Numbered from the stretch's first letter, positions 4,606-54,963 are shown. The stretch is DNA of 64,000 bases from an uncultured Candidatus Saccharibacteria bacterium (GCA_964531475.1 CAZHCS010000001.1:14712-78711); one strand, 5' to 3'. Numbers and translations: made by a program. Notes: generated by a model not told the origin, from the sequence alone.

Positions 4606-6420
4606 ATGCAGATATTCATGGACCTCCGCCATATCCGCAATTTCAGCATTATCGCCCATATCGACCACGGGAAAAGCACCCTGGCCGATCGTCTTTTGGA
4701 ATTGACCAATACTATTGAAAAGCGAAAGATGCAAGACCAGGTCCTCGACAACATGGAGCTCGAACGCGAGCGTGGCATCACGATCAAGATGCAGCCGGTT
4801 AGAATGCAGCACAATGTTGATGGGCAGGATTATGTTTTTAATCTCATCGACACCCCGGGGCATATCGACTTTTCCTACGAAGTCTCCCGCGCCCTAAATG
4901 CCGTCGAAGGCTCTATACTGCTCGTTGACTCAACTCAGGGTGTCCAGGCTCAGACTTTTACGACTCTTGGGATGGCGCAAAAATCTGGGCTTACTATTAT
5001 TCCTGTATTATCGAAAATCGACTCTCCGCTTTCACGTGTAGACGAGGTCAAGGCCGAAGTTGCTAAGGTATTGCAGTGTTCGGAAGACGAAATACTTTGC
5101 GTTTCGGGTCGCACCGGAGAAGGTGTGTCGAAGTTGCTCGAAGAGATAGTTCGTCGTGTACCGGCGCCAAAACAAGAATCTATCCAGGACGGACTACGTT
5201 CGCTCGTGTTTGATTTTCAATATTCAAATCACAAGGGAGTCATTGTTTATGTTCGCGTCACCGATGGACAAGTTAAAAAAGGCGATACTCTCATATTTAC
5301 ATCGGCCAAAGAAAAATTTATTGCACTCGAAGTTGGGACGTTTAGTCCAAGCCCGGTTGCCAAGGACATTTTATCTGCTGGCGAGATTGGCTATATCGTG
5401 ACTGGTATCAAAAAGCCCGGTATCGCATCGGTTGGCGACACAGTCACGCTCGAGAAAAAGCCGCTCCCAGCTTTGCCAGGCTATATGACGCCACGGCCGG
5501 TCGTCTGGGCGTCTGTATATCCGGAAAGTCAGGATGATTTTGACGAACTGCGCGCGTCGCTCGGGAAATTGAAGCTCTCTGATTCGTCGCTGACATACGA
5601 AGAAGAATCGAGCGGTGCGCTCGGGCGAGGTTTTCGCTGCGGACTGCTTGGTATGCTGCACTTGGAGATTATTACAGAGCGATTAAAACGTGAATTTAAT
5701 CTTGCTCTTGTAGTTACGACACCTTCTATAACTTACCGGGTAAAATATCGCAACGGCAAGGAAGAAATGATCTATTCGCCGCATACTTTTCCAAACGATG
5801 GAGATATATCCGAAGTTTCGGAGCCTTGGGTGACAGTTAAGATAATAACCCCGACTGATTATTTGGGTCCTATAATGACTCTTCTTTTCGAACACGAGGC
5901 CGAAGCAAAAGACGTCGAGAATTTTGGTGATAATCGTGGCGCGCTTCTTGTTGAGATGCCGCTTCGAGAGATGATGCGTAACTTTTTTGATAATTTGAAA
6001 TCCGTTTCGTCAGGCTACGCGTCTATTTCGTACGAGATTGGCGAGTATCGTCCAGCTGATGTTGTGCGGCTTGATATCCTCGTCGCTGATGAACCGATCA
6101 TGGCATTCGCTCGCGTCGTCTCGCGTCGTCGTGTTCAAGAAGAAGCTGAACAGGCGGTGCAAAAACTCCACGCTGCGCTCCCGCGACAAATGTTCGTGGC
6201 GAAAATCCAAGGCAAGGCTCTAGGGCGCATATTGGCGTCGGAAACTCTCAAGGCTTTTAGGAAAGATGTCACTCAGCATATGTATGGTGGCGATATCACT
6301 CGTAAAATGAAGCTGCGCGAAAAACAAAAGAAAGGTAAGAAAAAAATGGCCGACCGCGGCAAGGTTAATATCCCGCATGAGGTGTTCTTGAAGATGATGA
6401 GAGGGGGAAGCGACAATTAG
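4606..6420 (+). CDS. lepA: elongation factor 4 (LepA)
   Basis: MQIFMDLRHIRNFSIIAHIDHGKST and a GTPase domain. The ORF-track start at 4453 is an upstream in-frame extension. Confidence 0.9.
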   Translation: MQIFMDLRHIRNFSIIAHIDHGKSTLADRLLELTNTIEKRKMQDQVLDNMELERERGITIKMQPVRMQHNVDGQDYVFNLIDTPGHIDFSYEVSRALNAVEGSILLVDSTQGVQAQTFTTLGMAQKSGLTIIPVLSKIDSPLSRVDEVKAEVAKVLQCSEDEILCVSGRTGEGVSKLLEEIVRRVPAPKQESIQDGLRSLVFDFQYSNHKGVIVYVRVTDGQVKKGDTLIFTSAKEKFIALEVGTFSPSPVAKDILSAGEIGYIVTGIKKPGIASVGDTVTLEKKPLPALPGYMTPRPVVWASVYPESQDDFDELRASLGKLKLSDSSLTYEEESSGALGRGFRCGLLGMLHLEIITERLKREFNLALVVTTPSITYRVKYRNGKEEMIYSPHTFPNDGDISEVSEPWVTVKIITPTDYLGPIMTLLFEHEAEAKDVENFGDNRGALLVEMPLREMMRNFFDNLKSVSSGYASISYEIGEYRPADVVRLDILVADEPIMAFARVVSRRRVQEEAEQAVQKLHAALPRQMFVAKIQGKALGRILASETLKAFRKDVTQHMYGGDITRKMKLREKQKKGKKKMADRGKVNIPHEVFLKMMRGGSDN

Positions 6421-31457: not shown

Positions 31458-32486
31458 ATGGCAATTATTTCATTCCGACCAAAACAGGTCAGCAAAAAAC
31501 TCCTATCCGTTCTCAAGGACAGGTCGTTCGACGTTATCGCCAACCGCTACGGTTTGACAGACGACAGCGAACGCAAGACGCTCGAGGCTATCGGCGGCAA
31601 ATACGGAATTACTCGCGAACGTGTTCGTCAGATCGAGAATGCGGCGCTTGCTTCCATTAGAAAGTCCAAAGAAATGGAAGAGTCGAAAGAGGTTTTCGAC
31701 GAACTTCGCACTGTCCTAAATGGTCTTGGCGTTGTTGTAGAAGAAGACGAACTTCTCTCTCATATTGCCAAGGACAAGGCTACTCAGAATCACGTGCATT
31801 TGTACCTTGTTTTGGGTGACGAATTCACAAAGCATAAAGAAGATGATGACTTCAGAGCACGATGGTCTCTTTCACACGACGTCGTGGATCGTGTTCACGA
31901 AGCACTTGAAAAACTCTACTCCTCTCTTGGTGACGACGAACTTGTGACCGAGACAAAAATCATCGAAAAGTTTTTGAGCCATGTCAAAGACTTGTCGGAA
32001 GAACAGCGCGATGAAGAGATAATCCGTCGCTGGCTTCGCTTGTCGAAAAATATCGGCAAGAACCCGCTTCACGAGTGGGGACGCGCCGATTCTAAAAACG
32101 TCAAAACGCGCGGCGTCAAGGACTACACGTACCTCGTCATGCGCAAGCACGGCGAACCGATGCACTTCCGTGAAGTCGCCGAAGCCATCACCAAAACTTT
32201 CAACCGAAAGACTTTGGCGGCCACTACGCATAACGAACTCATCAAGGACCCTCGTTTCGTTCTCGTTGGCCGAGGTCGCTACGCTTTGAAGGAATGGGGA
32301 TACAAGCCTGGAATTGTTCGTGAAGTTATTGCTTCGATCATCAAAGAAAATGGTCCGATGACCAAAGACGAGATCGTCGACGCAGTTTTGAAGGAACGAT
32401 TCTTGAAGCGAAACACCATCTTGGTCAACCTCCACAACGCAAAATATTTCAAGAAGACCAAAGACGGCAAATATACGAACGCGTAA
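31458..32486 (+). CDS. sigma-70 region-4-like HTH domain protein with an unknown C-terminal domain
   Basis: The N-terminal DVIANRYGLTDDSERKTLEAIGGKYGITRERVRQIENAALASIRK closely matches sigma70 region 4. There is no region 2. Confidence 0.5.
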   Translation: MAIISFRPKQVSKKLLSVLKDRSFDVIANRYGLTDDSERKTLEAIGGKYGITRERVRQIENAALASIRKSKEMEESKEVFDELRTVLNGLGVVVEEDELLSHIAKDKATQNHVHLYLVLGDEFTKHKEDDDFRARWSLSHDVVDRVHEALEKLYSSLGDDELVTETKIIEKFLSHVKDLSEEQRDEEIIRRWLRLSKNIGKNPLHEWGRADSKNVKTRGVKDYTYLVMRKHGEPMHFREVAEAITKTFNRKTLAATTHNELIKDPRFVLVGRGRYALKEWGYKPGIVREVIASIIKENGPMTKDEIVDAVLKERFLKRNTILVNLHNAKYFKKTKDGKYTNA

Positions 32487-47328: not shown

Positions 47329-47409
47329 GGGTTTTCCACAGGCCATTGACATTTGGTTATTCTTTGTTGTATAATCTGGACAAAACCTGCACCCCAAAAA
47401 CGCTACACC

Positions 47410-48201
47410 ATGAAAAATGCGACAATTGCCCTGTTGCTACTGGCGCTGTGCGCGCCAGTGAACACTTCGGCTCAGATCGTGTTCGGTCTGTCGTCTGCGC
47501 AAAATGCCGATTGTACGAACAAGGGTTCGATCAATCTTTCCGTCGTCCCTCAGGTCGGCGGATCGTACGCGATCAACCTTTTCTCAAGCGGCTTCCTGAC
47601 GCAGATCAATGGCACCGAGTCGATCGTCGACTCGACGCTCGAGATGCTGCCAGGTACTGTTACCGGCAATGCCACGTTCTATGACAGCCTTGGCATGTGG
47701 GCCGCGAGCTACCAAGTGATCCCGCTCATCGTCTCGCAAACGTGTGTTGTAACTGTCGCCTGCGAAGGCAACGCGACCGTTATCCATCCGTCGAACGGAG
47801 AGGTGACGTTCCATGTCAACGGTGAAGTTTTCGAGGGCGAAGAAGATCTCGAGCTCACAGTTGATACAGCGAACGTCCAAGTCTACACCGGTTATGGGGT
47901 CCAAGTGTTCTCACAAACAGTGTACGACACCTGCGGCACCACGACCGGCACGCCCGAGCGGCCCGAACGCCCTGCGCCGACAGTCTTTCCGAATCCAGCG
48001 ACAGACGGCTCCGTGACCATCCTGGCCGAAGGCTACGATGAGTACGCGATCTACGACGTGCTCGGCGAGCTGCGTCAGAGCGCCCGCTTCGAAATGAGTG
48101 GGAAAGCGATCATCGATCTGCGAGGCTTTCCGAGCGGTCGTTACATCGCGCATGTGTCGTCGGCAACGGCGCATCACATTATCCGCTTCGTGGTCTTGTA
48201 G
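47410..48201 (+). CDS. secreted protein with SprB-like repeat and T9SS-type C-terminal sorting domain (Bacteroidota-type)
   Basis: Signal peptide MKNATIALLLLALCAPVNTSAQ. CTNKGSINL...GGSYAINL resembles an SprB repeat. The C-terminal VFPNPATDGSVTI...IDLRGFPSGRYIAHV resembles the Por secretion tail. GC-richer. Confidence 0.55.
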   Translation: MKNATIALLLLALCAPVNTSAQIVFGLSSAQNADCTNKGSINLSVVPQVGGSYAINLFSSGFLTQINGTESIVDSTLEMLPGTVTGNATFYDSLGMWAASYQVIPLIVSQTCVVTVACEGNATVIHPSNGEVTFHVNGEVFEGEEDLELTVDTANVQVYTGYGVQVFSQTVYDTCGTTTGTPERPERPAPTVFPNPATDGSVTILAEGYDEYAIYDVLGELRQSARFEMSGKAIIDLRGFPSGRYIAHVSSATAHHIIRFVVL

Positions 48202-48310
48202 CTACCTACATCTTGCAAGCCGTCCTCTTAGAGGGCGGCTTGTTTGCTTGTGATTGACTTTTCACACTCGGGAGCGCAAGATGATCTTGGACCAACTAAA
48301 ACCCTGCTCC

Positions 48311-49393
48311 ATGAAAATTTTTTCCTTCCTCGCGATGCTCGCGACGCCTTTTCTGGCCTTTGGCCAAACAGTGAACTGGATGCCGTACGAACGCCCTGGC
48401 GATTGTGCTGGTAATGGTACCGGGATCATCTACGACTTGTGGGACCCGGATGGCATTATCCTAAACCCTGCTACCGCGTATATCGTGAGCTACTACGGTG
48501 CTGGCGATTCGCTTGGCCTACCGATCGACACCTTTGGGCTTGTCACTGGTGAATTCCATGACTCGATTCCATTGCCATCGATCAATATCTCGACGCACAA
48601 TGTCGACTCTAGCCATCGTGCGACCGTGTACTACCAATACTTCGAGTGGATGATCATGGCTGCTGTGGACTGGCAGCAATCGATATTTGTCGACTCGCTT
48701 ACGATGGAGTGCGACATAGTCGAAGTCTGTCACGGCGACTCTGTACAGACGAATGGCGGCGTCGGTGTGTGGTTCCAGAATATGGCGCCGCTTGGCGTCG
48801 GAACGTCAGTCGATATTTCTGACACCGGCACTGTAGTGCTTGTTCCCGAACTTCTCTACACGGGCCGATATGACAACTGGACACCCATCATGCAATTTGT
48901 CGATCCGACTTGGGCTTCGGCAGCTGTCATGCACACCTGTGACAACCAGCATACCGGAGCTATTATGGTGTTGCCTGATGGAACCTCTCCATACGTTTAT
49001 AGTCTAAACGGCGTAAACAGCAATTTCCCCGTGTTTCCTGGATTGGATGCCGGTACCTATGTTGTAAGCGTTAGCGACTCAGACGGATGCAATATCGAAT
49101 TCGAAGAGATCGTGCTCGATACGTGTGATGTAATTACGAGCATCTCGGAAAATGTCGTTACCGAAAATCCGAAGCTCTACCCGAACCCAGCGAGCGATAT
49201 CGTTTACGTTATCGTCGAAAGCTTTAGTTCTTACGAGCTACACGATTACGCGGGACGAATCGTTGCATCTGGCACACTCGCGGAAGGGAAGAATGTTCTC
49301 GAGGTATCGACTCTTGCAGCTGGCGCGTACCGCGTGCTGCTTCGGTCGAGCGATGGGCGCACATCTCCTGCTACGTTTGTGGTCGCGAGGTGA
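48311..49393 (+). CDS. secreted protein with SprB-like repeats and T9SS-type C-terminal sorting domain
   Basis: Signal peptide MKIFSFLAMLATPFLAFGQ. CDNQHTGAIMVLPDGTSPYVYSLNG...LDAGTYVVSVSDSDGC is a good SprB-repeat match. The C-terminal LYPNPASDIVYV...STLAAGAYRVLL is CTD-like. Confidence 0.6.
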   Translation: MKIFSFLAMLATPFLAFGQTVNWMPYERPGDCAGNGTGIIYDLWDPDGIILNPATAYIVSYYGAGDSLGLPIDTFGLVTGEFHDSIPLPSINISTHNVDSSHRATVYYQYFEWMIMAAVDWQQSIFVDSLTMECDIVEVCHGDSVQTNGGVGVWFQNMAPLGVGTSVDISDTGTVVLVPELLYTGRYDNWTPIMQFVDPTWASAAVMHTCDNQHTGAIMVLPDGTSPYVYSLNGVNSNFPVFPGLDAGTYVVSVSDSDGCNIEFEEIVLDTCDVITSISENVVTENPKLYPNPASDIVYVIVESFSSYELHDYAGRIVASGTLAEGKNVLEVSTLAAGAYRVLLRSSDGRTSPATFVVAR

Positions 49394-49519
49394 GGTGAAC
49401 TTTCAAAGAGAGGCGGCGCGGGCAAAGCCCGCGCCGCTTTTTCTATCCCAAGCATCAGACATTGACAAGAAACAATAAAGATGATAAAGTACCATACAAA
49501 CCTACGTAAAAAACGTACC

Positions 49520-49918
49520 ATGAAAAAAGCAGGCCTTGTGGCACTTCTCATTGTTCTCTGCAGCTTCGGCTCGCAGTCCGACGCATCAGACCTCATCCAA
49601 AAGCGAATCACAGCTGGCGAGCGCTTTCTGTCGTTATTCGACTCGATACCGCGTTTGCGAGACAATTCCACAGAGGGTATCTATGCCATGCATTACGCTC
49701 GTGTAGTTAGTTATGCCATTGATAGCTTTGACGAAGCCATTCCTCAAGCGCGTCTCTGTGAAGAAATGAGTCGGGTGGAATGCCTGTCGCCCGAGCAGAG
49801 CAAGATGCTGAAAGAGCAGACCAGTATCGTGTTGGGCGAGATGCAGAATGATCTCAACACGATGATGGCGTACACCGATTCACTCTCCCTGCTTGTCAGG
49901 ACTGCGAAGAAGAAGTAG
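49520..49918 (+). CDS. hypothetical secreted protein
   Basis: Signal peptide MKKAGLVALLIVLCSFGSQSDA. 132 aa from the internal ATG. Confidence 0.4.
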   Translation: MKKAGLVALLIVLCSFGSQSDASDLIQKRITAGERFLSLFDSIPRLRDNSTEGIYAMHYARVVSYAIDSFDEAIPQARLCEEMSRVECLSPEQSKMLKEQTSIVLGEMQNDLNTMMAYTDSLSLLVRTAKKK

Positions 49919-49963
49919 CTTGAGCGTACGAATAGCAAAGAGCGTCCTCCGGGACGCTCTTTT

Positions 49964-50482
49964 CTATTGCAGGCCGAAACTTTCGATTAGAGATTTCTCA
50001 GTAACGGGATCGATATGCTGCGTGACGACGATCATGATTTCGTCGTGGAGACCGAGATCGTTTTTAATATTAAGGAAGAGATGTTCGAAAGGGTATGGCG
50101 AGACCCAGACAGAATTTTTCATACAGAGAAATCCTGCTTTCTTGAGGATATAGCGGATTGAGTCGCGCTCGCTCTTGCGGCTCTCCGGCAGGTCGAGTAT
50201 AACCATGCGCCAAAAGCCATCCCAGCGCGTGTCGACGAGAGATTTCGGGTTCGAGAGCTTTATGGAGCGTAGTTTTTGGCGACCCTCGGGGGTGAGGCGG
50301 AGGAATGACGACTGCGCTGTTTCTAGTTCCTCGACCAAGCCGGCCTCGGAAAGGTTCTTGAGGCTCCTGGTCATAGCATAACGGTCTTTGGCCTCGGGAG
50401 GGGTCAAATTTTCGCGATTTACAGCCTTTTTGCCGGCCAATTTTTCCAATATTTCTTCTTGGATCTTGGACTTTCTTGACAT
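49964..50482 (-). CDS. PaaX-like winged-helix transcriptional regulator (paralog 1)
   Basis: N-terminal wHTH, then C-terminal WDGFWRMVILDLPESRKSERDSIRYILKKAGFLCMKNSVWVSPYP matching PaaX_C (WDGxW..V...P.....R...R..L...GFG....VW..P). Confidence 0.55.
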   Translation of the reverse strand: MSRKSKIQEEILEKLAGKKAVNRENLTPPEAKDRYAMTRSLKNLSEAGLVEELETAQSSFLRLTPEGRQKLRSIKLSNPKSLVDTRWDGFWRMVILDLPESRKSERDSIRYILKKAGFLCMKNSVWVSPYPFEHLFLNIKNDLGLHDEIMIVVTQHIDPVTEKSLIESFGLQ

Positions 50483-50515
50483 GCATAAAAACTAACATAT
50501 AATACGGCCATTAGC

Positions 50516-50568
50516 AAGTTTTCCACGGACGTGAAAAACTTGTCAAAATTATAAACATAGTCTATACT
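50516..50568 (+). promoter_or_regulatory. grpE promoter (TTGTCA-17-TATACT, leaderless) overlapped by a 12-bp inverted repeat AAGTTTTCCACG-ga-CGTGAAAAACTT
   Basis: -35 at 50540-50545 and -10 at 50563-50568; grpE ATG at 50575. The IR at 50516-50541 has one mismatch. No canonical CIRCE element. Confidence 0.5.
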
Positions 50569-50574
50569 TTAGCC

Positions 50575-51147
50575 ATGTTAGACAAAAATGATGATAATTT
50601 TGAACCCGAAATAGAGTTTACCCCGTCAAACGGGGCAGGCGAAGACGATGTCGAGGAGTATGTTGGGGATAAGCTGAAAAAGCTCCGGCAAGACCTGAAG
50701 GACGCCAAAGCCGAATCGACTAAAAATTTGGACGGCTGGCAGCGAGCTCTCGCCGACTATGCGAACCTCCAAAAGACCTCGAACGAGCAGCTCAAAGAGC
50801 TCAAGAATTATGTTCTCGAAGGTTTTGTCGAAGAACTTCTCCCGACACTCGATGCGTTCGACATGGCCATGAAGAACAAAGAGACCTGGGAGTCTGTTTC
50901 AGAAAATTGGCGCAAGGGAATCGAATACATCTACAGCCAGCTCAAAGGCGTGCTCGAAAATAACGGAGTTCAAGCGATAGAAAACGCTCACGAGAAGTTC
51001 AACCCGGACTTGCATCACGCGATCGAAGAAATAGAAACAGACGACGCATCAAAAGATCACACTATCTCAGAAATCGTTCAGAAAGGGTACAAGAGTCCAA
51101 AAGGAGTCATCCGTCCAGCGAAAGTAAAAATATTTATCAAAAAATAA
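50575..51147 (+). CDS. grpE: nucleotide exchange factor GrpE
   Basis: Coiled-coil N-terminus, then the GrpE core ([23 protein letters not shown]...[10 protein letters not shown]). Confidence 0.85.
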
Positions 51148-51169: not shown

Positions 51170-53053
51170 ATGTCAAAAATCATTGGAATCGATTTGGGAA
51201 CAACAAACTCGGCAGTCGCCATCATTGAGGGTGGTCAGCCGAAGATCATAGAAAACGCCGAAGGCATGCGCACCACGCCGTCTATTGTCGCACTCGCGAA
51301 AAATGGCGATACGATGGTCGGTGTTACGGCCAAGCGCCAGTCCATCACGAACCCGAAGAACACGATCTACCAGATCAAGCGCTTCATTGGCCACAACTTC
51401 GACGAACCAGAAGTACAGAAAGACATCAAAGCTATTCCGTTCGAGACTCGCAAGGGTTCGACAGGCGGTATCGAGGTTAAATTCGGCGACGACTGGAAGC
51501 GTCCAGAGGAAATCTCGGCGATGATCCTCCAGAAGATCAAGTCTGATGTCGAAGCAAAACTCGGCACGAAAATCACCGAAGCGGTTATCACCGTTCCGGC
51601 ATACTTCAACGACGCGCAGCGCCAGGCGACCAAAGACGCCGGCAAGATCGCTGGACTTGACGTCAAGCGCATCATCAACGAGCCGACAGCGGCAGCTCTC
51701 GCATACGGCTTCAACAAGAAAAAGGATGAAAAGATTGTCGTCTTCGACTTCGGCGGCGGTACATACGACGTCTCTATTCTCGAAGTTTCCGAAGATACTA
51801 TCGAAGTAAAGTCTACCGACGGCGACGCACACCTTGGAGGCAAGGATATCGACCAGAAGATCATGGATTGGCTCGCCGAAGGCTTCCAGAAGGAAAACGG
51901 TATCGATTTGCGCAAGGATCCTTTGGCCAAGCAGCGTCTCGATGACGCGGCTGAGAAGGCGAAAATCGAGCTTTCTACGGCTGTTCAGTCAGAGATCAAT
52001 ATCCCGTTCATTACTTCGGGCGAAGCCGGGCCTCTTCACCTTGTTCGCACGATGAAGCGTGCCGAACTCGAAGAGCTTTGCCGCGAGTTCATCGACCGCG
52101 CTATGGAGATCACCAAGCGCGCTATGGAAGCTTCACCATTCAAAATTTCTGAAATCAACGAAGTTATTCTTGTCGGTGGACAGACTCGCATGCCAGCCAT
52201 CCAGGAAGCTGTCGAGAAATTCTTCGGGAAGCGTGTAAATCTTTCGGTCAACCCAGACGAAGTCGTAGCACTCGGCGCCGCTATCCAGGGAGGCGTTCTC
52301 CAGGGCGACGTCAAAGACGTTTTGCTTCTCGACGTTATCCCGCTATCGCTCGGTATAGAAACTCTCGGCGGTGTCGCGACAAAACTTATCGAAAAGAACA
52401 CGACTATCCCTGCCTCTAAGTCACAGGTCTTCTCGACCGCGGCTGACAATCAGACTTCGACCGAAATCCATATCGTTCAGGGTGAACGACCGATGGCAAC
52501 TGACAACAAGTCACTTGGCCGATTCGTTCTCGAAGGTATCCCGCCAGCACCACGCGGCGTGCCGCAGATTGAAGTTACGTTCGACATCGATGCGAATGGA
52601 ATTCTAAATGTGAAGGCGAAGGACAAAACTTCTGGCAAAGAACAGTCTATTCGTATCGAAGCGTCTTCAGGACTCACAGACGAAGAGATCAAAAAGATGC
52701 AGAAAGACGCGGAGCTTAACGCCGAAGCGGACAAGAAAAAGAAAGAGCTTGTCGATATCAAGAACAATGCTGAGATGACAATCTTTACCGCCGAAAAGGC
52801 GATGAAAGACGCCGAAGGCAAGATTGGCGATGATGTAAAGAAGTCTGTCGAAGAAAAAGTCGCGAAGCTTAAAGAAGTGAAAGAATTGCCAGATCACCAC
52901 ACTGATGACGGCGGACGCTTGAAGTCTGCGACAGAAGAGCTTATGACTGAGATGCAGAAGATTGGTGAGGCGATGAGTAAAGCGCAACAGTCAGAACCAA
53001 AGAAGGAAGACGGAACGCAGGAAGCGGAGGTTGTTGACGATAAGAAAGAGTAG
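51170..53053 (+). CDS. dnaK: molecular chaperone DnaK (Hsp70)
   Basis: [18 protein letters not shown] and all other Hsp70 signatures are present. 627 aa. Confidence 0.95.
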
Positions 53054-53064
53054 AAACGAAACCA

Positions 53065-53082
53065 CCCCGGCAATTGCCGGGG
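53065..53082. terminator. perfect palindrome CCCCGGCAATTGCCGGGG between dnaK (+) and the minus-strand membrane-protein gene
   Basis: A T-rich run follows on the minus strand only. Confidence 0.5.
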
Positions 53083-53104
53083 CTGGGTCGTTGAATGGTG
53101 CTCG

Positions 53105-53374
53105 TCAGGCTTGCGGACCGACTAGCTTCCTGTCTATGAAGCTGATGAATTGATCTGCCTTTCTTTCCACCCAATGTCTTGCCATTGTTAGGATGAAGAC
53201 AAGGTTAAAGAAGGGCCAAGCGAATACTCCGATGGAGATCCTCAAGGATCGATCACCGAAGATCAGAACAGACATCAGAAGTCCGATGTCGAGCAACAGG
53301 ACAATGGCCAAGCCAATCGCGTTGTGGCGTTCTTCCTTAGGAAGTTGACGGAATTTCTGGAAGAGCTTTTTCAT
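53105..53374 (-). CDS. hypothetical small membrane protein (PLD-N-terminal-domain-like)
   Basis: Two predicted TM segments (AIGLAIVLLLDIGLLMSVLIF; IGVFAWPFFNLVFILTMA). Confidence 0.4.
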   Translation of the reverse strand: MKKLFQKFRQLPKEERHNAIGLAIVLLLDIGLLMSVLIFGDRSLRISIGVFAWPFFNLVFILTMARHWVERKADQFISFIDRKLVGPQA

Positions 53375-53419: not shown

Positions 53420-54304
53420 ATGTCAAAAGACTATTACAAAATTCTCGAGGTTGATAAGGGCGCTTCAAAAGAAGAGCTGAAGAAAGCTTTTCGCAAAAAG
53501 GCGCACGAGTATCATCCGGACAAGCAAACTGGTAACGAAGCCAAGTTCAAAGAAGTAAACGAGGCTTACCAGGTTCTCTCTGATGACCAGAAGCGTGCAC
53601 AGTATGACCGTTTCGGAAGCGCAGGGCCGCAGTTCGGTGGACAGGGGGGCCAAGGCTTCGGCGGCTTTGACTTTGGCGGATTCAACATCAACTTCGACGG
53701 CTTCGGCAATGGTCAAGAATTCGACCTAAACGACATCTTCTCCGCATTCGGCGGCGGAGGGTTCGGCGGGCGACGCGTTCGAAAAGGGCGAGACATTATC
53801 CTCGGGCTTACGCTGTCATTCAAAGAATCCGTTCAGGGCGTCTCCAAGACCATCAAGATCCCATCAAACAGCGTTGAGAAGGCCAAGGGCGACGTTACAG
53901 TCAAAATCCCAGCTGGTATCGAAACAGGCCAAATGATGAAAGTCGCCGGCTTCGGTGAGCCTATGGAGGGCGGTCAATCGGGTGACCTTTTGCTCAAGAT
54001 TTATGTCGAGTCTCACAAGAGTCTGCGTAAAGAGGGAATACATATCGTTACGGATCTGTCCGTAAAACTCACCGACGCGATCCTCGGCGCAACGTATGAT
54101 GTGGAGGGCGTTGAAGGCCCGATCAAAATAAAAATCCCGAAAGGCATCCAAACCGGCAAAATCCTCCGCATCCGCGGCGCCGGCGTCCAAGCGGGCCGCT
54201 TCCAACACGGCGACCTTCTCGTCGTCATCACTGTCGAAATCCCAGAATCACTTTCTCGCGAACAAAAACGTATCATCGAAGATCTTCAAAAATCTGGATT
54301 ATAA
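53420..54304 (+). CDS. dnaJ: J-domain co-chaperone DnaJ/CbpA-type lacking the Cys-rich zinc-finger domain
   Basis: J domain DYYKILEV...HEYHPDK and a G/F-rich region. There are no CxxCxGxG repeats. C-terminal substrate-binding domains are present. Confidence 0.8.
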   Translation: MSKDYYKILEVDKGASKEELKKAFRKKAHEYHPDKQTGNEAKFKEVNEAYQVLSDDQKRAQYDRFGSAGPQFGGQGGQGFGGFDFGGFNINFDGFGNGQEFDLNDIFSAFGGGGFGGRRVRKGRDIILGLTLSFKESVQGVSKTIKIPSNSVEKAKGDVTVKIPAGIETGQMMKVAGFGEPMEGGQSGDLLLKIYVESHKSLRKEGIHIVTDLSVKLTDAILGATYDVEGVEGPIKIKIPKGIQTGKILRIRGAGVQAGRFQHGDLLVVITVEIPESLSREQKRIIEDLQKSGL

Positions 54305-54348: not shown

Positions 54349-54388
54349 TGGTGATTATATCTAACCATATGTTAGAATATAATCACCA
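54349..54388 (+). promoter_or_regulatory. palindromic operator-like site TGGTGATTATAT-N16-ATATAATCACCA overlapping a TATAAT box and the ATG of the PaaX-like paralog 2
   Basis: 12-bp perfect arms. The inner part is nearly palindromic (CTAACCATATGTTAG). TATAAT at 54378-54383. Confidence 0.5.
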
Positions 54389-54963
54389 TGAAGATTGAAA
54401 AGGGGAGGGAAAATTTAGACTACAAGGAAATAATTCTGAAGTCTGTTTTGGTCGTGGGAATTATCGGAGTTGCTATGGTTGCGCCGAATGCGTTGCAGGT
54501 GGTTAAGTTTTTCGAAAAGGATAAGGGTTACAAGGAGCGTAAGTATGCCCTCAACAAAAAGATTTTTGTTTTAGAGAGAAACGGATTTATAAAATTTGTT
54601 TCGAGAGGCGACAAGAAGTTCGTGACACTTACGTCAAAAGGGAGGAAAGAGATCGAGAAGTATCTTTTAAATGATCTAGAGATTAAAAGACCGAAACGGT
54701 GGGACAAGAAATGGCGGATTGTTAGTTTCGATATCAAGAATACGCGAACGCCACTTAGAAATTTATTTCGGCACCATCTAAAACGGCTTGGATTTGTCCA
54801 ATATCAGAAGAGTATCTGGATCCATCCTTTTGAATGCGAAGAGGTGATTATTATGATGAAGTCGTATTTCAAATTTGGCAAAGAGGTGATGTATATTGTT
54901 GCTGAGCATCTAGAGAATGACAAAAAATTAAAACAAGAATTCAACCTTATTTCATACACGTAG
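54388..54963 (+). CDS. PaaX-like winged-helix transcriptional regulator (paralog 2), strongly AT-rich
   Basis: WDKKWRIVSFDIKNTRTPLRNLFRHHLKRLGFVQYQKSIWIHPF gives the same PaaX_C pattern as 49964-50482. Much lower GC than the surroundings. Confidence 0.55.
   Translation: MKIEKGRENLDYKEIILKSVLVVGIIGVAMVAPNALQVVKFFEKDKGYKERKYALNKKIFVLERNGFIKFVSRGDKKFVTLTSKGRKEIEKYLLNDLEIKRPKRWDKKWRIVSFDIKNTRTPLRNLFRHHLKRLGFVQYQKSIWIHPFECEEVIIMMKSYFKFGKEVMYIVAEHLENDKKLKQEFNLISYT

Follow-up and report, generated by a model that had tools for sequence, protein, structure and literature searches.

The repressors of bacterial chaperone operons HrcA, HspR, CtsR and RheA have in common a conserved inverted-repeat operator that is linked to the regulator and overlaps the chaperone promoter. 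The same arrangement is found at the locus analyzed here, in which a gene that we call reg1 lies divergent from grpE-dnaK, with a palindromic, putative operator between them. The locus is part of a stretch of 64,000 nucleotides (nt) from an uncultured Candidatus Saccharibacteria bacterium (GCA_964531475.1, CAZHCS010000001.1:14712-78711), to whose full length we refer as the window. We consider it likely that reg1 binds DNA as a homodimer and is dedicated to the regulation of dnaK, its parts being a winged helix and a Cas2-like dimerization domain, i.e., PaaX minus its ligand-binding C-terminal domain. The comparison with relatives establishes the linkage of regulator, predicted operator and dnaK together with the geometry of the predicted promoters.

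HspR, a MerR-family protein, represses the dnaK operon in actinobacteria, Helicobacter and Deinococcus, with the HspR-associated inverted repeat (HAIR), CTTGAGT-N7-ACTCAAG, as its operator. Both HspR and reg1 would represent a dedicated regulator that is genetically linked to dnaK and has an inverted-repeat operator at the dnaK promoter, and feedback by DnaK is possible in both cases. Yet, the folds are unrelated, hspR closes the dnaK operon whereas reg1 is divergent, and the reg1 operator sequence is unlike HAIR. The system of HrcA and its operator, the controlling inverted repeat of chaperone expression (CIRCE), is comparable with regard to the position beside grpE-dnaK and to a palindromic operator located after the promoter start and ahead of the first gene. 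Here, the differences are that hrcA opens the operon and is transcribed in the same direction, that HrcA is about twice as long as reg1, that reg1 has no match to the HrcA domain and that CIRCE is absent. In the case of RheA of Streptomyces albus, the repressor gene and hsp18, its single chaperone target, are transcribed divergently, and the protein binds intergenic inverted repeats, autoregulates and acts as an intrinsic thermosensor. The reg1 locus shares with RheA-hsp18 the divergent orientation toward one chaperone target and inverted repeats in the shared intergenic region, but differs in protein family and target gene.

PaaX is a phenylacetyl-CoA-responsive repressor of paa operons. It resembles reg1 in having an N-terminal winged helix, which in reg1 is predicted by the structural model, followed by a Cas2-like middle domain (PF20803), and both are tied to divergent promoters and to autoregulation, which is predicted in the case of reg1. 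PaaX represses by competing with RNA polymerase, and its operator reads TGATTC-N27-GAATCA (PMC9493321). The half-sites of the reg1 operator, in contrast, are only 2 bp apart, compared to ~27 bp for PaaX. Moreover, reg1 is devoid of the PaaX_C ligand-binding domain, its presumed target is dnaK, and paa catabolic genes are not among its neighbors, which are grpE, dnaK, ribosomal and other housekeeping genes. The boxes taken directly from the sequence of the E. coli K-12 paaZ-paaA region (TGATTCGCG and TGATTCGTG) read TGATTCGYG and resemble the reg1 half-site TaTTTCGYG, a likeness that we treat as a lead only.

Both the protein family and the class of chaperone-operon repressors with a palindromic operator are known; what is new is the combination, along with the architecture and the taxon. 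Our literature searches found no relevant paper describing a reg1-dnaK system or the control of chaperones in Patescibacteria. To our knowledge, this large and mostly uncultured radiation has very few transcription factors, and its gene regulation is nearly uncharted. The proposed system would join a specific regulator, operator and target in at least 568 species-level relatives and would be a fifth, non-homologous type of bacterial chaperone control beside sigma-32, HrcA, HspR and CtsR. It would also give a function to a subfamily currently annotated as PaaX, MarR or 'Cas2'. The compact promoter-operator cassette, with predicted leaderless mRNAs on both sides, is usable for heterologous tests.

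Conserved linkage of reg1 and dnaK

The elements of the proposed system are located in the window as follows.

49964-50482, minus strand: reg1, 172 amino acids (aa), PaaX_M (PF20803)
50476-50503, plus strand: P2, promoter of grpE-dnaK, TTGACA (50476-50481), 16 nt, TATAAT (50498-50503); 12/12 consensus match, the strongest in the region
50489-50517, minus strand: P_reg, promoter of reg1, -35 TTGCTA (reverse complement of 50512-50517), 17 nt, extended -10 TGtTAGTTT (reverse complement of 50489-50497)
50515-50542: putative operator, palindrome CAAGTTTTCCACG-GA-CGTGAAAAACTTG, 13-nt arms with one mismatch, 2-nt spacer
50540-50568, plus strand: P1, promoter of grpE, TTGTCA (50540-50545), 17 nt, TATACT (50563-50568)
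50575-51147, plus strand: grpE (PF01025, 1.1e-39), separated from reg1 by an intergenic region of 92 bp
51170-53053, plus strand: dnaK, conserved target of the proposed system

As stated in a preliminary description of the window, a PaaX-like winged helix-turn-helix gene adjoins grpE in divergent orientation. A profile of 22 orthologues (A1) retrieved at least 568 relatives of reg1 among species-representative genomes; the 80 best loci (L001-L080) were analyzed, and the dnaK and grpE neighbors were located in them by tblastn. The divergent arrangement is kept in these relatives: the reg1 orthologue faces away from dnaK (70-94% identical) or grpE-dnaK in 75 of the 80 loci, and in the other five the contig ends within 700 nt of it. 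The pair grpE-dnaK is found opposite reg1 in nine loci and in the window, and dnaK alone elsewhere. The genes around reg1-dnaK differ even between the closest relatives while the link with dnaK holds, and the conserved unit therefore consists of reg1 and dnaK. In two loci (L010 and L078) insertions part reg1 from dnaK, and both the operator and P2 remain on the dnaK side.

A grpE gene apart from dnaK is usually found immediately 3' of rpsI, the gene of ribosomal protein S9 (38 genome loci, L010-L080), a position that speaks for joint transcription with ribosomal protein genes rather than for control by stress. The absence of hrcA and CIRCE, already noted for this locus, is borne out by several searches. 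None of the ~35 larger open reading frames (ORFs) of the window that were scanned encodes HrcA, the HrcA family is absent among the Pfam and NCBIfam matches of reg1 and of its paralog reg2, and CIRCE (TTAGCACTC-N9-GAGTGCTAA) has no match in the window with up to 3 mismatches. In the relatives, the CIRCE core has 0 matches in the 80 loci, and the separate grpE follows rpsI, not hrcA.

In L001 (4702-5226), grpE and dnaK are separated by an inserted P-loop kinase-like gene of ~175 aa, and in L078 (1358-1894) such an insertion lies between operator and dnaK; in either place the gene would fall within the regulated unit.

One putative palindromic operator per locus

The inverted repeat upstream of grpE that had been reported before is present, albeit imperfect given the one mismatch between its 13-nt arms. 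It is unique in the window, where 0.01 chance matches are expected. All intergenic regions of the loci contain one such palindrome, whose consensus comprises 28 bp, CAAGTaTTTCGYG-NN-CRCGAAAtACTTG. A position weight matrix (PWM) of 33.7 bits assigns 27.9 bits to the window repeat, the sole window site of at least 10 bits. The repeat recurs in the orthologous promoters: exactly one operator per locus, of 21-44 bits, was found in 79 of the 80 species loci, the exception being a truncated locus. The distance from operator to reg1 start codon is 27-28 nt in most loci. No second site of at least 12 bits occurs in the ~900 kb of genome loci covered by the PWM, and shuffles yield 0-1.

An unbiased metagenome scan with the motif pattern gave 120 contigs holding 116 PWM sites, 76 of which adjoin reg1 and/or dnaK. 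Three of the other 40 are on reg1-carrying contigs. Of the rest, the 20 with the highest scores were inspected as possible extra operators and rejected as chance-like; they are located on unrelated contigs of 44-68% G+C, mostly within ORFs. A second operator in a Patescibacteria context was not seen among the 120 metagenome loci. The earlier proposal of a PaaX-like control over chaperones is thus well supported for reg1 and dnaK by synteny and operator conservation, but its extension to a chaperone regulon is not supported: the site was found only at the promoters of dnaK or grpE-dnaK and of reg1, the groESL, clpB and hsp20 promoters lying outside the coverage.

An inverted repeat at this position might also act as RNA. 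The P2 transcript would carry it at approximately +5 to +32, foldable as a 13-bp stem, and could serve as thermometer, attenuator or stabilizer, with reg1 as an unrelated neighbor. However, the pairing is not kept. Four symmetric positions are nearly invariant while several pairs are merely 47-68% complementary; position Y16/R21 varies independently in the two arms, with C/A mismatches common at this pair (17/74), and drift of the G-U type is absent. The stem is located at least 30 nt from the start codon at a variable distance, is not followed by a T-run and has no Rfam match (in the window and 10 loci Rfam detects tRNAs only). Nor would a hairpin account for the constant distance of 27-28 nt to the reg1 start, or for the fact that the repeat occurs strictly together with reg1. 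The hairpin or terminator reading was rejected on the pair statistics and the absent T-run, and we consider an RNA role of the repeat highly improbable. In the clade of the window, G/C has been replaced by A/T symmetrically, with one change at the equivalent position of each half-site. The variation of the repeat fits the degenerate operator of a dimeric protein, not a selected RNA hairpin.

Promoter geometry and probable sign of regulation

The preliminary description had assigned to grpE a leaderless promoter overlapped by the repeat. This promoter, P1, is confirmed (TTGTCA-17-TATACT, its -35 having TTG in common with the operator), but the better match P2 had been overlooked. The -10 of P1 ends 6 nt 5' of the grpE ATG, predicting a leaderless mRNA. 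P1 and P2 were compared over 78 operator sites. A P1 equivalent is recognizable in 53 of them and is less conserved than P2, for which an equivalent of the form TTGACA-16/18-TATAAT/TATACT/TATATT with a match of at least 10/12 exists in 68, the -10 ending 5-11 nt ahead of the operator. The predicted start of P2 is near 50510, which places the operator at about +5 to +32.

The -35 of P2 overlaps the start codon of reg1. In most species reg1 begins with ATGTCAAG, the reverse complement of its start giving the TTGACA of P2. The Ser2 codon is TCA at every recognized Ser2 start, compared to 14% of the Ser codons elsewhere in the same genes, and orthologues with other starts retain TGTCAA just 5' of the ATG. 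Given the conservation in 68/78 sites and this extreme synonymous-codon bias at codon 2, we conclude that P2 is under selection. Consensus P2 sequences can be read even in L010 and L078, though no regulator gene follows there.

On the opposite strand, P_reg is wholly embedded in P2. Its -10 is conserved across loci as TAnnnT, often preceded by TG, and is separated from the reg1 ATG by 6 nt in the window and 6-7 nt across loci, again predicting a leaderless transcript. The P_reg -35 shares 3 bp with the regulator-proximal arm of the operator.

We infer that reg1 is most likely a repressor, because the operator is located at +5 to +32 of P2, the promoters are near consensus and PaaX provides a precedent. 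P1 and P2 being near consensus, no activator would be needed. Alternatively, reg1 might bind the same operator as an activator, recruiting RNA polymerase to one or both of P1 and P_reg from between their back-to-back -35 elements. The operator center at approximately -46 from both starts, upstream of the core promoters, and the often weak -35 of P_reg (TTGTAT) would be in line with such a role. A center at -46.5, however, matches neither the usual class I nor the usual class II activator spacing. The most conserved dnaK-side promoter, P2, has the operator in a repressor position, neither P1 nor P2 is far from consensus, and the closest characterized relative is a repressor, which together make activation unlikely.

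In six loci (L022, L041, L046, L048, L071, L077), the 5' leader that extends from the operator to the dnaK start (for example, 5731-5936 on the minus strand of L048) contains a conserved element of ~90 nt with the motifs GCGAACTGCTCG and CTGYGCAAG; it forms a hairpin with compensatory changes (16/31 predicted pairs), has no Rfam match and may be a structured leader RNA. In L001, L002, L004 and L005, an insertion of ~125 nt is found between promoter and grpE, with the inverted repeat CCCGTTAGAGAT...ATCTCTAACGGG at its ends. It is absent in the window and L003 and may be an element similar to a miniature inverted-repeat transposable element or a leader structure. A small conserved hairpin, AAATCCCGATCCGATAATCGGGGTT, occurs in the leader directly 5' of dnaK in L012, L015, L028, L033, L044 and L072.

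The reg1 protein

The PaaX_M domain (PF20803) of reg1 is recognized with an E-value of 2.7e-21 and 75.9 bits (cutoff 24). About 7 residues follow this match before the C-terminus at residue 172, and Pfam finds no PaaX_C in the protein. Against the PaaX equivalog model TIGR02277, reg1 remains below the cutoff (36.9 vs 264.55 bits). Pfam gives no match to the PaaX N-terminal domain PF07848 at E <= 0.1; a winged helix is present in the AlphaFold2 (AF2) model (predicted local distance difference test score 85), followed by a linker helix and a beta-alpha-beta-beta-alpha-beta (Cas2-like) domain. The top folds retrieved by Foldseek are PaaX (8a39, E 3.3e-5), the PaaX-like protein of Jannaschia (3l09) and Rv0674 (3kfw). 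When the family profile was compared with the sequences of the PDB, only marginal winged-helix matches (E >= 0.02) were obtained, none of them significant. Homologues of reg1 number 356 and belong to metagenome-assembled genomes of Parcubacteria, Paceibacteria or Nomurabacteria; orthologues reach down to ~50% identity. Together with the gene content of the window, this affiliation assigns the window to a Patescibacteria genome of the Paceibacteria type. Database names of reg1-type proteins are PaaX, MarR or hypothetical.

The conservation pattern of the family leaves room for a different role, in which reg1 regulates only itself or acts like Cas2 or VapD (as a nuclease or toxin-like protein), the adjacency to dnaK being synteny without control. 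The Cas2-like domain is the best-conserved part of reg1 (WDGxWR, LDLPExRKSER, LRYxLKKAGF, KNSxW), above the winged helix, and the paralog reg2 has weak Cas2 matches. In addition, the wider family is large, with 4,098 representatives at E <= 1e-3 and 1,427 clusters at E <= 1e-10, mostly of 180-195 aa and mostly away from dnaK; the dnaK-linked orthogroup is a small subset of ~20 clusters at E <= 1e-30. Against this, in every species the promoters on the dnaK side overlap the operator, and in the split loci operator and P2 go with dnaK, not with reg1. Since the gene order near the pair is otherwise fluid, passive synteny across >500 species is unlikely. We therefore give this alternative little weight and retain reg1 as the probable regulator of dnaK.

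Proposed mode of action

In the model that we propose, a reg1 dimer would bind to the one palindrome in the intergenic region of reg1 and grpE-dnaK. The core of this operator, ATTTCRYG-NN-CRYGAAAT, is situated just 3' of the P2 start and touches the -35 of P1 and, on the other side, that of P_reg; by this position, bound reg1 would block grpE-dnaK and probably reg1 as well. As P_reg and P2 occupy the same DNA on opposed strands, RNA polymerase could use only one at a time. Upon heat or protein-folding stress, reg1 would lose DNA binding and dnaK would be released. By analogy with RheA, CtsR and HspR, this release might be accomplished by an intrinsically labile repressor or by titration of DnaK acting as co-repressor, the latter as for HspR.

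Several points weigh against this model. That reg1 binds DNA is inferred, and so are the sign of its regulatory effect and the signal that induces dnaK. The operator core extends from approximately -38 to -55 relative to P1 and P_reg, which would suit an activator no less than a repressor. Further stress genes with the operator were not found in the 80 loci, the window and the 120 metagenome loci, and the label 'heat-shock regulator' consequently derives solely from the identity of the target. Furthermore, the ligand-sensing domain of PaaX is missing from reg1, and hrcA could be encoded elsewhere in these genomes.

Downstream genes and the paralog reg2

Around the reg1-grpE-dnaK unit, the following features were identified.

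49481-49918, plus strand: upstream ORF, convergent with reg1
49931-49968: hairpin with 17-nt arms between this ORF and reg1, probably a bidirectional terminator
53055-53092: hairpin after dnaK, from the inverted-repeat and promoter/terminator scans
53105-53374, minus strand: ORF of 89 aa between dnaK and dnaJ
53421-54304, plus strand: dnaJ, with ATG at 53421 as best start
54349-54388: palindrome TGGTGATTATAT-N16-ATATAATCACCA, perfect, 12-nt arms, around the reg2 promoter and enclosing ATATGTTAG
54388-54963, plus strand: reg2 (paralog 2), 191 aa, PaaX_M
beyond reg2, minus strand: ORF of 161 aa, then cysS

The hairpin at 53055-53092 probably is a terminator closing the grpE-dnaK unit. The terminator-like sites scored at this hairpin (53083-53064 and 53068-53047) belong to the minus strand and face the convergent ORF 53105-53374. 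Because this terminator-like hairpin and the opposite-strand 89-aa ORF intervene, dnaJ is outside the dnaK operon in this genome, and of the grpE-dnaK-dnaJ operon suggested earlier only grpE-dnaK is left. The gene dnaJ has its own upstream region, in which the reg1 operator is not present, and it is seldom near reg1 orthologues in the 80 loci. Its -10 (TATAAT) ends 7 nt 5' of the ATG, and its transcript may be leaderless too. The encoded DnaJ consists of a J domain, a G/F region and a C-terminal domain; there is no match to the zinc finger (CxxCxGxG), and the DnaJ_bact model aligns in two pieces.

The second PaaX-like gene, reg2, indeed follows dnaJ, as had been described. It matches PaaX_M with 3e-17, lacks PaaX_C, is far under the PaaX equivalog cutoff and shares 27% identity with reg1 (E 4e-22). 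The motif ATATGTTAG occurs 5' of both paralogs, reading as the reverse complement of 50492-50500 at reg1 and as 54367-54375 at reg2, where it is inside the palindrome, as had been observed. As an operator common to both paralogs it was rejected: it corresponds to a TGnTAnnnT extended -10, located 6-9 nt before each ATG in near-leaderless promoters. The palindrome at reg2, with outer hexamers GGTGAT and ATCACC 26 bp apart, occurs nowhere else in the window in this version and differs in geometry from the reg1 operator. In relatives, the reg2 promoters keep CATATGTTA (extended -10) between complementary 6-nt arms 26 bp apart, the arm sequences varying by species, e.g., GGTGGT/ACCACC in L202 and ACACTT/AAGTGT in L204.

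In several relatives, dnaJ is followed by a reg2 orthologue (64-82% identical), and L204 has a contiguous reg1 / grpE-dnaK-dnaJ-reg2 arrangement. This order is confined to a subclade, and in the genome loci L001 and L002 no reg2 was detected. The part of the earlier proposal that had reg2 act as a chaperone co-regulator was rejected, given that its palindrome is confined, within the window, to its own promoter. Most simply, reg2 is probably an autoregulated paralog with no demonstrable link to chaperone control.

Reg2-type proteins have a conserved hydrophobic N-terminal motif, VAPNALQ, that replaces the first helix of reg1. The N-terminus of these proteins (A2), IILKxxxxVGxxxVAxVAPNALQ, is strongly hydrophobic and resembles a membrane anchor. 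Many of them are labeled 'CRISPR-associated endonuclease Cas2' in public records, labels that are probably wrong. More speculatively, a class of Patescibacteria might control Hsp70 by a sensor-regulator with winged helix and Cas2 fold, responding to proteotoxic stress through thermolability or DnaK titration, in which the opposed promoters P2 and P_reg with their one operator form a toggle, and the ~190-aa paralogs with a hydrophobic N-terminus might be Cas2-fold one-component regulators specific to Patescibacteria. We put forward this broader scenario as a tentative possibility, which we think doubtful as a whole.

Other genes of the window

The window further encodes the housekeeping proteins LepA, ValS-type and AlaS tRNA synthetases, FtsZ/FtsA, MreB, RpoA, DnaB and RelA/SpoT. 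Two secreted-looking proteins (47353-48201 and 48254-49393, plus strand) carry a type IX secretion system (T9SS) type A sorting domain (TIGR04183; 31.8 and 30.8 bits, cutoff 23). This stretch (47353-49393) is the G+C peak of the window (0.52-0.53), and its genes have possibly been acquired from Bacteroidota. At 31458-32486 (plus strand), a 342-aa protein combines an N-terminal sigma-70 region 4 with a HARE-HTH / RNA polymerase delta-like domain, an unusual architecture.

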